From Spirochaetota bacterium (GTDB lineage: Bacteria > Spirochaetota > B62-G9 > DRHN01): a stretch of 47,104 nucleotides of DNA. Below, piece by piece: positions 42,427-45,254 of the stretch. The stretch covers positions 1-47,104 of the forward strand of contig DAOVJS010000002.1 of assembly GCA_030673105.1 (NCBI GenBank), given 5' to 3'. The notes beneath the pieces were generated by a model that was not told the origin of the DNA, made no database searches, and saw nothing but the letters and a program-made list of their open reading frames with translations. How positions within the stretch are numbered: the first letter of the stretch is position 1; each line of letters begins with the position of its first letter. The translations under genes were made by a program, and so were the position numbers.

Positions 42427-42843
42427 ATGTTGGATACAACTCTGGAAAAAGTCAAAAAACTGATAAAGGAAAAGGACACGTTAATTTCCTGTTTTAATAT
42501 GGATATTGTCAATTTTCAAGCGGGGACTTCCTCTGTCAGCATGAACGTTAAAGATAATCATGTGAATGCTGCCGGTGTTTGCCACGGAGGAGTAATCTTT
42601 TCCCTTGCCGATGTCGCATTCGCCCTTGCCTGTAACAGTCACGGGACTCTATCCCTGGCTCTTGAGATGAGCATAAGCTTTCTGAAGGCCGTTCAGCCGG
42701 GTGAAACAATAACAGCCGTCTGCTGTGAAAGACACAGGGGGAAAAGTACCGGGTGTTATACTATTGAGATTAAAGACTCGCAGGGTAAATTTATTGCGCT
42801 CCTCAAGGCAACGGCTTTCAGAAAAAATACTCCTTTTGTTTAG
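42427..42843 (+). CDS. PaaI-family hotdog-fold thioesterase
   Basis: 138 aa. It has NAAGVCHGGVIFSLADVAFALAC. An AAGGAGG RBS is present. Confidence 0.8.
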   Translation: MLDTTLEKVKKLIKEKDTLISCFNMDIVNFQAGTSSVSMNVKDNHVNAAGVCHGGVIFSLADVAFALACNSHGTLSLALEMSISFLKAVQPGETITAVCCERHRGKSTGCYTIEIKDSQGKFIALLKATAFRKNTPFV

Positions 42844-43022
42844 GGTTTTATATCTTATGTCTCTTTTAAAGTGATTCGATATATCAACTATAGGCAAGGA
42901 AACTTATTAACCATTATGAGATTTTATTAATCGCCTATGGTTTATACCTAATTGTGATTTTATCCATATTAATAGATAAAACCACAGGCGGTAAACAATT
43001 TGCGCGTAGAGGTATTGATATA

Positions 43023-45254
43023 GTGAAAAAAATACTCATGATAATTGGCGCGGGTATTCTTCAGGCTCCTGCCATTAAAACAGCGAGAGAAATGGGACTG
43101 TTAACCCTTGTAACAGACTACGATAAAGATGCCTACGGCATGAAATTCGCGGATTTTCCCATAGTTATGAGCACAAGGGATGTGGATGGCACTGTAAGGG
43201 TCGCAAAGAAGTTTGCGCAGACCAGAAGAATAGACGGAGTAATAACGGTTGGTACGGATGCTTCACTGACTGTTGCCGCGGTACAGCACGCCCTTGACCT
43301 TCCGGGGAACAGAATCGATGTCGCGGAAGCAACAACAAACAAGATCAAGATGAGAAGGCGGCTGGAAGAAAAAGGCATCCCTCAGCCGGTTTTTTTCCCC
43401 TGCGGAACATACGATGACGTTGTAGATGCGTCAAGAAAGCTGGGATTTCCCTTCGTTATTAAACCTGCGGACAACATGGGCGCCCGTGGAGTCATGAAGG
43501 TTGATAAACCCGAAGTGATCCGCTTTGCCTATGAAAGGGCAAAAAACTCAACTCCAAGGGGGGAAATGATCTGTGAAGGTTTTATGGACGGACCTGAGCT
43601 CAGCATTGATGCTCTCGTGTGGGACGGAGAGATATTGATTACAGGCATCGCTGACAGGATCATCGAGTTCCCGCCTTACTTTGTTGAAACCGGTCATATC
43701 ATGCCCACGAATCTTAAACCTGACATGGTTGATGACGGAGTCGGGGTTTTTAAAAGAGGAATACAGACACTGGGGATAGAAACCGGCGCGGCAAAAGGAG
43801 ACATTAAGATCACAAGCGCAGGCGCGATGGTGGGCGAGATCGCTTCCCGCCTGTCAGGCGGCTTCATGTCCGCCTACACATATCCTTATTCAAGCGGGGT
43901 TAATCTTGTTAGAGCTGCGATTAATATCGCGCTGGGGAATCCTCCGGGTGATATTGCCGAGATACTCAAAAGGGTGTCCGCGGAGAGGGCCATAATACCC
44001 GGAAGCGGTGTTGTAAGAACAATAGAAGGAGTGCAAGAGGCAATATCCATAAAAGGCGTAAAAAATGTATTCGTCACCTGCGCTGTTGGTGATACGGTAC
44101 ACATTCCAACCAGCAACGTGGAGAAATGCGGGAATGTCATCGCGGCAGCGGATACAAGGGAGGAAGCTCTCAACAGCGCTAACCTTGGTGTTAAAACACT
44201 TAAGATACTGCTCGGCACAAAAGGTGAAATTAACGAAGGATTGATAAGAAAAAACGCCCTTGAGAAATTATCAGGAACATGCTCTGTATGCAGGGTCTGT
44301 GACGGCGAAGAATGCTCCGGGTGGTTTCCCGGGATAGGGTCAAAGCTGAACGGGGGCGGTTTTAAGAGAAATTTCCGTATTTTACAAAGGTATGTTATTA
44401 TTCCCGATATTTTGAAGAGCATGGACAATGTTAATACCGGAAGCGATATATTCGGTATACCCATTGACCTTCCTGTACTCCCTGCTCCGGTCTCAAATAT
44501 CAAGAAAAACCTGAACAGCATATTCGGGGAGGAGGAATACAACAGGATACTGCTTAAAGGAACAAAAAATTCAGGAAGCATCGGCCTCATTTCACAGTTG
44601 GAGCTCGAACCGGCAAACGGCAGCATCGATTATCTGATAAGCCCTCTTTCAGACGTGTACGGGCATGGAATACCGTTCTTAAACCCCTACTGTGGAGAAA
44701 AAACAACTCTTAATAACATTGAAAAGTCATTCGCAGCAGGGATCAAGACATGCGGGCTTTCAATGGACCTGAAGGACAGCCGCGGAGCGGTCCTGATAAA
44801 TGAAAACCGGCTCTCAGAAATAATCAATAAATCCCCTGTCCCTGTTATTGTAAAAGGCATTCTCTCAAAAGATAACGCCCTTCGGGCCGTAAATGCCGGT
44901 GCTAAGGGAATCGTCCTTTCCAACAGGGGAGGCCGGATACTTGAATACCTCCCCTCAGGCCTTGAAGTTTTGAAAGAGATAAAGGATGCCGTCGGAAATA
45001 ACACTTTAATTATGGTTGACGGAGGCATCAGGAGCGGGGAAGATGTGTTCAAGGCGGTCGCACTGGGAGCTGACATTGTACTTATTGGAAGGCCGCTTGT
45101 AATTTCAATTGCAGGCGCGGCCGAAGAGGGTGTGTCCTTTTACCTGCACAAAATCAGGGATGAGCTTCAGGAAGCAATGCTTGCGGCAGGCGCCAAAACT
45201 GTCAGGGACATTAAACCGGATATGATAAGGGAACTCCCTTTCCCGTCTAAATGA
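43023..45254 (+). CDS. Fusion protein: ATP-grasp ligase domain plus Cys-motif FMN-dependent (alpha-hydroxy-acid-oxidase fold) domain
   Basis: It is a single frame. I prefer the GTG at 43023 ([11 protein letters not shown], AGAGG 10 nt upstream); the ORF opens at GTG 42954. ATP-grasp motifs are [16 protein letters not shown] and GPELSIDAL. The FMN-barrel motifs are [18 protein letters not shown] and [21 protein letters not shown]. Confidence 0.75.
   Translation: [743 protein letters not shown]

Follow-up and report, generated by a model that had tools for sequence, protein, structure and literature searches.

The gene at positions 43023 to 45254 of a 47,104-nucleotide stretch from a Spirochaetota bacterium (assembly GCA_030673105.1, contig DAOVJS010000002.1, positions 1 to 47,104 of the forward strand; this whole stretch is called the window below) encodes a genuine two-part protein, in which an ATP-grasp half of the L-amino-acid-ligase (LAL) type is fused to a flavin mononucleotide (FMN) barrel with a four-cysteine (Cys4) motif. 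It is preceded by a gene for a PaaI-type thioesterase, and the alignments place it in a derived sub-branch of a larger fused family, in which the catalytic histidine of the barrel is replaced by arginine (Arg-type, as opposed to the His-type proteins that keep the histidine). Our favoured explanation is that of a bifunctional enzyme, a ligase combined with a rebuilt flavin/metal barrel, that works with the PaaI-type thioesterase as its partner, and we give this explanation as a whole a probability of about one half. The features concerned are the following (positions in the window, all on the + strand; residues of the fusion protein are counted from GTG 43023):

42427..42843, PaaI-type hotdog acyl-CoA thioesterase of 138 amino acids (aa) (Pfam, NCBIfam and PDB match)
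43023..45254 (stop codon included), fusion open reading frame (ORF), 743 aa from GTG 43023
43023..44207, ATP-grasp half of the L-amino-acid-ligase type, with ATPgrasp_N, ATP-grasp_4 and LAL_C2 (Pfam and Foldseek)
44280..44315, C-x2-C-x2-C-x4-C motif (C420, C423, C426, C431) at the N-terminal edge of the barrel (sequence)
44358..45230, FMN_dh TIM barrel (Pfam, PDB profile matches and Foldseek)
44592..44609, S-Q-L-E-L-E (residues 524-529) in place of the His-type G-D-G, a 3-residue insertion with Glu527 (column counts)
44682..44690, N554-P555-Y556 in place of the His-type K-P-R (column counts and profile alignments)
44760..44774, S580-M-D582-L-K584 in place of the His-type D-[IV]-D-A-x, followed by a 7-residue deletion (column counts)
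44925..44927, Arg635 (codon AGG), where glycolate oxidase has its catalytic His254 (sequence)

In the ORF list of the window the fusion gene is a single unbroken frame on the + strand (42954..45254), which also contains an in-frame GTG at 42954 as an alternative start (766 aa). The true start is most likely GTG 43023, because the homologues are 729-747 aa long and begin with M-x-K-x-I-M-I-I-G-A-G, and because an AGAGG ribosome-binding site lies 10 nucleotides 5' of this codon. The fusion of two domains had been proposed in a first-pass annotation, and the Pfam scan found both of them in the one ORF: an ATP-grasp set within the first ~420 residues (ATPgrasp_N, 27.5 bits vs. a cut-off of 27; ATP-grasp_4, 45.7 vs. 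27; ATP-grasp_3, 30.1 vs. 23.2; LAL_C2, a model specific to L-amino acid ligases, 60.4 vs. 29.4) and FMN_dh (PF01070; 188.8 bits vs. 24.9, E 1.8e-55) within the last ~300. None of the NCBIfam models reached its curated cut-off on the protein, so the curated naming set of NCBI has no family for it. An AlphaFold2 model, built on 23 homologues, had a mean predicted local distance difference test (pLDDT) score of 86.6, and Foldseek matched its N half and its C half to separate structures in the PDB; neither Foldseek nor profile searches of the PDB found a solved structure that combines both halves. Pyruvate carboxylase was also matched by Foldseek, but only because it likewise has an ATP-grasp domain and a TIM barrel, the root-mean-square deviation being about 20 Å.

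The fusion is not peculiar to the window. The best 120 matches listed from a collection of 5.8 billion proteins were all ~740 aa long and shared both the Pfam set and the Cys motif of the window protein. Genome loci were represented by the best 80 of 578 relatives (one genome per species), all of which cover query residues ~1-735; their hosts are uncultured Spirochaetota, Brevinema, Leptospira noguchii, L. ognonensis, many Nitrospinota and a few others. A further 80 full-length loci listed from metagenomes had the same continuous architecture without exception, one of them (contig L094) being 99% identical to the window. The homologue alignment is continuous through the domain junction. A library clustered at 50% identity contains ~20 distinct clusters of 700-930 aa with the barrel at the C-terminus, which indicates that the fused family is old and diverse. 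The architecture is therefore not rare but widespread in Spirochaetota (including Leptospira) and Nitrospinota. In the parts of the literature accessible to the search no study of an ATP-grasp/Cys4-FMN_dh architecture was found, the only mention being a microarray table that lists LA2659 as hypothetical; thus, as the first-pass annotation had supposed, no characterised member of the family was found in the literature, the PDB or NCBIfam.

The nearest relatives of the window protein outside its own sub-branch are the His-type fusions (e.g., L. noguchii L080, Nitrospina L059-L075 and Spirochaetes GWC1_27_15 A2Y34_18460), which have the same domain order and length at 41-50% identity and share with it the Cys motif, the ATP-grasp motifs and the FMN-binding residues (L. 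interrogans LA2659, annotated “hypothetical protein”, is grouped with them by annotation only). They differ from the window protein in that they keep SNHGGR, GDG, KPR, DxDA and the K-[ST] loop and have no PaaI neighbour. Among the listed homologues the separation is complete: SNRGGR is present in all of the 57 full-length clusters at 62% identity or more, SNHGGR in all of the 57 at 45-50%. Ten of the genome loci are Arg-type (window included) and 71 His-type. Because stand-alone barrels and distant fusions (Leptospira, Nitrospinota) are nearly all SNHGGR, His is regarded as the ancestral state.

Comparison of the two halves suggests how the Arg-type arose. Between Arg-type and His-type the identity is 57% in the N half and 35% in the C half, compared with 63% and 49% within the His-type and 76% and 59% within the Arg-type; i.e., the ligase half of the Arg-type is almost as near to the His-type as His-type proteins are to each other, whereas the barrel is far more diverged. 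The ratio of C-half to N-half identity is nevertheless equal within both types (59/76 vs. 49/63), and together with the excess divergence of the barrel this indicates a burst of barrel change followed by purifying selection. The alignments thus identify the Arg-type as a derived sub-branch of uncultured Spirochaetota, in which one burst of change replaced or deleted the catalytic His together with four or more further active-site segments that are invariant in the ancestral His-type barrel, the new residues being kept afterwards (Arg635 and Glu527 in 57/57). Acquisition of the Arg-type C half from a distant FMN_dh family was considered and rejected, as its nearest relatives are still His-type fusions and stand-alone barrels with the Cys motif, and the Cys motif is kept. 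The first-pass annotation had asked whether the exchange is lineage-specific or the norm of a known active subfamily: the former holds in that Arg is the norm of one sub-branch (57/57 clusters), the latter does not, this sub-branch not being a known active subfamily. Each of the nine Arg-type genomes contributes a single locus to the best 80, which is no more than suggestive of the absence of a His-type paralogue.

The fold and the cofactor site of the barrel are those of the classical alpha-hydroxy-acid oxidases. Profile searches of the PDB matched lactate, glycolate and 4-hydroxymandelate oxidases, and Foldseek matched the C half to mandelate/4-hydroxymandelate oxidase (6A1M/6AI7) with template modelling (TM) scores of 0.76-0.77. 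The window barrel has the fold in common with glycolate oxidase (1GOX), L-lactate oxidase, flavocytochrome b2, mandelate dehydrogenase, 6AI7 and MftD (TM about 0.77), and it keeps the binders of the FMN phosphate and ring, including the equivalents of Lys230 (K611) and Arg257 (R638). All of the predicted FMN binders (K611, S633, N634, G636, G637, R638, D666, G667, G668, R670, G689 and R690) are conserved to at least 95% in both clades.

The catalytic centre, by comparison, is different. In classical alpha-hydroxy-acid oxidases His acts as the base, and replacing it essentially abolishes activity (flavocytochrome b2, lactate oxidase). In the window, the SNRGGR segment lies within 44913..44942, and the AGG codon that the first-pass annotation had read at 44925..44927 was confirmed. 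It is at least two base changes away from any His codon and Arg is found in 57/57 close clusters, so it is not a sequencing error. Since the His that defines the family (S-N-H-G-G-R) is Arg635 in the window protein, the latter should not be annotated as an alpha-hydroxy-acid oxidase. Column counts over the 57 Arg-type and the 57 His-type clusters extend the difference to the rest of the pocket, as follows:

Positions 524-526: G-D-G in the His-type (57/57, 55/57 and 57/57); [A/S]-Q-x in the Arg-type with a 3-residue insertion, Glu527 in 57/57
Positions 554-556: invariant K-P-R in the His-type; N-P-Y in the Arg-type (N 49/57, Y 39/57)
Position 580: invariant Asp in the His-type; Ser or Thr in the Arg-type
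Position 584: variable in the His-type; Lys or Arg in the Arg-type
Positions 588 and 594: Thr588 (56/57) and Gln594 (54/57) in the His-type; variable in the Arg-type
Loop after 594: contains K-[S/T] in the His-type (K 55/57); 7-residue deletion in the Arg-type
Position 635: invariant His in the His-type; Arg in 57/57 of the Arg-type

In alignments to the classical oxidases, K-P-R/N-P-Y falls on Q-L-Y (Gln127/Tyr129 of glycolate oxidase) and G-D-G/S-Q-L on S-S-W (the Ser106-Trp108 region), also on an I-S-T stretch. By sequence alignment only, the carboxylate binders of glycolate oxidase give a mixed picture: the equivalent of Arg257 is present (Arg638), the Tyr129 position is Tyr in only 39/57, the loop with Arg164 is 7 residues shorter in the Arg-type and the Tyr24 region is probably taken by the Cys motif. 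Where the classical enzymes have His254, Tyr24 and a full Arg164 loop, the window barrel has Arg, the Cys4 motif and a shortened loop, and in addition the ligase fusion. The claim that it is not a conventional hydroxy-acid oxidase is thereby strengthened, as the positions of His254, Tyr24, Ser106-Trp108, Gln127/Tyr129 and the Arg164 loop all differ. A further difference lies in the host, which is an anaerobe, so that O2 is an unlikely electron acceptor.

The codons of the Cys cluster at the junction, noted earlier at 44280..44315, were confirmed as C-x2-C-x2-C-x4-C. None of its four Cys varies in the 23-sequence alignment, all four are conserved to at least 95% in each of the two 57-sequence groups, and the motif is present in 120/120 listed homologues. 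In the profile alignment GG-x-G-x-G-x-x-F-x-x-N, which follows the motif, pairs with GA-x-D-E-x-T-x-x-x-N of lactate oxidase, and the motif would thus occupy the N-terminal Tyr24 region of the classical oxidases. It is a probable metal site, and the metal could be iron-sulphur, as the first-pass annotation had suggested, Fe or Zn. When the C half alone was used as query, many stand-alone proteins of 334-345 aa were found that start with C-x2-C-x2-C-x4-C-x-G-x-x-P-G-x-G-G, and by this pattern the Cys motif appears to define a sub-family of the FMN_dh barrel. These stand-alone proteins (~340 aa, from Clostridia and others; e.g., Romboutsia ilealis WP_180701981.1, named “alpha-hydroxy-acid oxidizing protein” or “FMN-dependent dehydrogenase, possibly ypqA”) are 34-38% identical to the window C half and have the motif in most cases, but they lack the ATP-grasp half, keep the His and have K-P-[WRH] at the Tyr129 position. 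They occur in varied gene contexts, and no separate ATP-grasp partner was found beside those examined. Variants of the Cys-motif barrel include a fusion with a HAD phosphatase-like domain (P0170), proteins with a twin-arginine translocation (TAT) export signal (P0153/P0174) and proteins with a rubredoxin-like domain (P0164/P0199), in which the Cys motif itself is altered. The rubredoxin, TAT and HAD variants suggest a redox-metal role of the motif and small-molecule substrates.

The ligase half has changed much less. Foldseek matched it to the L-amino acid ligases BL00235 (3VOT, TM 0.85-0.87), RizA (4WD3, 0.76) and YwfE/BacD (3VMM, 0.71), and also to PurT. The window N half shares with the three ligases the fold, LAL_C2 and the E-x-A-x-R loop (TM 0.71-0.87) at an identity of only about 17-24%; a C-terminal flavin barrel, as in the window fusion, is found on none of the characterised ligases of the BL00235/RizA/YwfE type. 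In this half 106 positions are conserved to at least 95% in both the Arg-type and the His-type clade, GEIAxRLSGG among them, and K147, E185, E192, D260, E272 and R276 show no variation in the 23-sequence alignment and at least 95% conservation in the 114 sequences. From general family knowledge we take K147 (in the V-I-K-P strand), the acidic residues as Mg ligands and the E-x-A-x-R loop to have their usual roles. Fixed differences between Arg-type and His-type in the ligase half are S179R, S229T and A275S (the last within the E-x-A-x-R loop), and these are consistent with an altered substrate.

The thioesterase ORF was assigned by Pfam 4HBT (61.4 bits) and TIGR00369 (100.8 bits), both above their cut-offs, whereas TIGR02286 (PaaI) gave 108.3 bits, below its cut-off of 118.9. 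Its best PDB match, over the full length, is E. coli PaaI (1PSU, E 2.5e-24), and the motif CHGGxxFSLADxAFAxACNS (HGG...SLAD) is intact. With E. coli PaaI (1PSU/2FS2), a (hydroxy)phenylacetyl-CoA thioesterase, the partner gene thus has the HGG...SLAD catalytic motif in common, but it scores below the PaaI equivalog cut-off and lacks a surrounding paa operon. For the analysis of neighbourhoods, genome and metagenome loci were pooled and collapsed at 95% identity, which gave 24 Arg-type lineages, 23 of them informative. The pairing with a hotdog thioesterase, described for the window in the first-pass annotation, recurs in 22 of the 23: a PaaI-type thioesterase gene is adjacent on the same strand (20 upstream, 2 downstream). 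In the remaining lineage the upstream space without PaaI is occupied, in L095, by an ORF of 128 aa (724..1110), which follows a long AT-rich spacer, has no family assignment and resembles a lipoprotein at its N-terminus. Among the ~127 His-type loci, a PaaI-like gene was found nearby in one lineage (L014/L122), on the opposite strand and 34-35% identical. Between PaaI and the fusion gene in the window nothing convincing was found in the way of small ORFs or a precursor peptide, and no terminator was predicted on the + strand. We conclude from these gene orders that the thioesterase is a true partner of the Arg-type enzyme, because the adjacency survives rearrangements and arises together with the rebuilding of the active site.

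Under our favoured explanation, the ATP-grasp half would activate a carboxylate as acyl-phosphate and transfer the acyl moiety to an amine in the manner of the L-amino acid ligases. The barrel would have kept the ability to bind FMN; its Cys motif would hold a metal, and Arg638 together with the new Arg635 a carboxylate. Canonical His-dependent oxidation of alpha-hydroxy acids would have been lost, leaving a barrel with a changed substrate or a changed chemistry. The thioesterase would set an acid free from its CoA ester, perhaps one of the aryl-acetate type, as the analogy with PaaI suggests. A metal-relayed dehydrogenase would fit the anaerobic host better than an O2-using oxidase; if the host is a ferredoxin-based anaerobe (see below), an exit of electrons via the metal site is more plausible than a reaction with O2. 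Its fold and its cofactor sites make the protein a member of both the ATP-grasp/LAL and the FMN_dh superfamilies, and it is not a categorically new system. We propose only tentatively, as less probable than not, that the fusion family (at least 160 loci) is a new class of bifunctional enzymes, and that the Arg-type together with PaaI is a neo-functionalised two-gene module, in which a His-independent flavin reaction acts on a CoA-ester-derived acid and the ligase joins the acid to an amine (e.g., to give an N-acyl amino acid).

Several observations weigh against the favoured explanation. The placement of the domains relative to each other is uncertain in the AlphaFold2 model (predicted TM score, pTM, 0.61), and the Cys-motif segment is of low confidence (pLDDT about 57-77). 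The PaaI gene is absent beside the fusion in one Arg-type lineage (L095/L096), and the Arg-type lineages are fairly close relatives, so that the PaaI linkage could in part be inherited gene order. Several of the Arg-type replacements are only moderately conserved (Tyr556 39/57, Gln525 46/57, Lys584 46/57), which would also fit relaxed constraint and a non-catalytic pocket. Finally, every member of the family, fused or stand-alone, is known from sequence alone.

The first of the alternatives takes up the moderate conservation of the pocket: the Arg-type barrel might be a non-catalytic module with a structural, redox-sensing or electron-relay role, and the protein an ATP-grasp ligase only. It would explain the loss of the catalytic His and of seven other residues that are invariant in the His-type, as well as the better conservation of the ligase half relative to the barrel. 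Yet none of the 57 Arg-type clusters has lost the FMN-binding residues or the four Cys, the new Arg635 and Glu527 do not vary, and the equal ratios of 59/76 and 49/63 indicate that constraint has not been relaxed; we consider this alternative unlikely. A smaller share of belief goes to the idea that the protein is still an L-2-hydroxy-acid dehydrogenase, with Tyr556, Lys584 or Glu527 as the base and electrons leaving via the Cys4 metal site. In the profile alignments the Arg-type is nearer to the classical oxidases at FFNPY vs. FFQLY and L-S-L-D vs. L-T-V-D, the equivalent of Arg257 (Arg638) is kept, and the neighbours in the window include a GlcD-like oxidase with Etf and a D-2-hydroxyacid dehydrogenase. 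However, His is the base in every characterised member and, as is generally known, its replacement essentially abolishes activity, about one in three Arg-type proteins has Phe, His or Ser in place of Tyr556, and the loop that bears Arg164 in glycolate oxidase is shortened, which together make a retained hydroxy-acid dehydrogenase rather improbable.

The remaining alternatives turn on the other neighbouring genes. On the - strand of the window, 36202..42178 holds a co-directional set of genes for a HemL/GntE-like class-III aminotransferase, EtfB, EtfA, a GlcD-like FAD oxidase and a D-isomer 2-hydroxyacid dehydrogenase, which, apart from some additional genes, looks like a set for an Etf-dependent lactate/2-hydroxyacid dehydrogenase; mnmE lies at 45489..46886 on the + strand. 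Across the Arg-type lineages these neighbours were distributed as follows:

EtfB-EtfA-GlcD block, upstream of the fusion gene in 11/24 lineages
mnmE, downstream in 9/24 lineages (the window and 8 others)
Class-III aminotransferase, only in the window's own lineage

The first-pass annotation had placed the divergent aminotransferase/Etf block in one small-molecule pathway with the fusion enzyme. That the genes are physically close in the window, and that the Etf/GlcD block recurs upstream in 11/24 lineages, would agree with this, but the aminotransferase is restricted to the lineage of the window, 13/24 Arg-type lineages and all His-type loci lack the Etf block, and the order on the closed chromosome CP070841.1 (pheT, GlcD-like, EtfA, EtfB / PaaI, fusion, mnmE, folE, tyrS) is an ordinary housekeeping gene order. 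The EtfB-EtfA-GlcD block itself looks like an ordinary Etf/lactate-dehydrogenase set. The proposal was therefore abandoned as very improbable; aminotransferase, Etf, GlcD and mnmE are, to judge from their distribution, presumably neighbours and not parts of the system.

No more weight can be given to a role of the family in the modification of the tRNA wobble uridine (U34). This idea draws on mnmE, which is directly downstream in 9/24 Arg-type lineages and beside two His-type lineages (L026/L134 and L037), on mnmA, which is 13-63 bp upstream of or overlaps the fusion gene in Leptospiraceae (L077, L078, L080, L173), on a stand-alone barrel in the rimM-trmD-rplS-ylqF-rnhB cluster of Romboutsia, and on a pseudouridine synthase near two other loci. 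The majority of loci, however, have no such neighbour, the TAT-signal and HAD-fused versions point to small molecules, both domains come from families of small-molecule enzymes, and some of the mnmE cases may represent a single ancestral gene order; the recurrent mnmE/mnmA neighbours may be due to chance or to inherited gene order. That the fusion is an assembly or frameshift artefact of two genes, for which the first-pass annotation had wanted the junction checked, is refuted, because independent assemblies, closed chromosomes among them, show the same ORF and architecture in every one of the 160 loci and 120 listed proteins.

The His-type loci have no universal neighbour gene, and their clusters are lineage-specific. 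In Leptospirales-like metagenome-assembled genomes the neighbours are GlpX, GAF-SpoIIE, an HI0933-like protein and LexA, in Leptospiraceae mnmA directly upstream and a PilZ protein downstream. In Nitrospinota (L051, L058-L062, L064-L069, L073-L076) a ~264-aa ORF of the HpcH/HpaI aldolase/citrate-lyase family is translationally coupled downstream of the His-type fusion (stop and start overlap or abut), followed by ATP-citrate-lyase-like genes in most of these loci.

Other parts of the window bear on the host. The + strand region 5155..11664, with a G+C content of ~0.50 vs. ~0.40 on both flanks, encodes 2-oxoacid:ferredoxin oxidoreductase alpha, beta and gamma, then a flavoprotein of 828 aa in which an HdrA-like part is joined to an MvhD/FlpD domain, and further a two-cluster ferredoxin-like protein and a CCG-domain HdrB-like protein; these genes may form an electron-bifurcating module coupled to 2-oxoacid oxidation. 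At 13197..15014 (+) there is a tungsten-type aldehyde:ferredoxin oxidoreductase (AFOR_N and AFOR_C), which fits an anaerobe fermenting amino acids or organic acids. By its gene content the host would be a ferredoxin-based anaerobe. The cumulative GC skew turns at ~15000 (+ to -) and at ~42200 (- to +, in the divergent promoter region 42178/42427), as does gene orientation, and these turns most likely reflect coding-strand bias and not a replication origin or terminus. No RNA family of Rfam matched the window.

Both halves of the protein come from well-studied superfamilies, and the fused family is conserved in many Spirochaetota, in Leptospira, which contains pathogens, and in the marine nitrite oxidisers of the Nitrospinota. 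For the Arg-type proteins the name “alpha-hydroxy-acid oxidizing protein”, given by automatic annotation, is very probably wrong. The sub-branch amounts to a natural experiment, in which a flavin barrel received a whole new active site around unchanged cofactor sites and, at the same time, gained a thioesterase as partner. The pair of Arg-type and His-type is thus a concrete lead for enzyme discovery with a built-in comparison, and the biochemistry of one against the other could reveal the role of the family and how the barrel works without its catalytic His.

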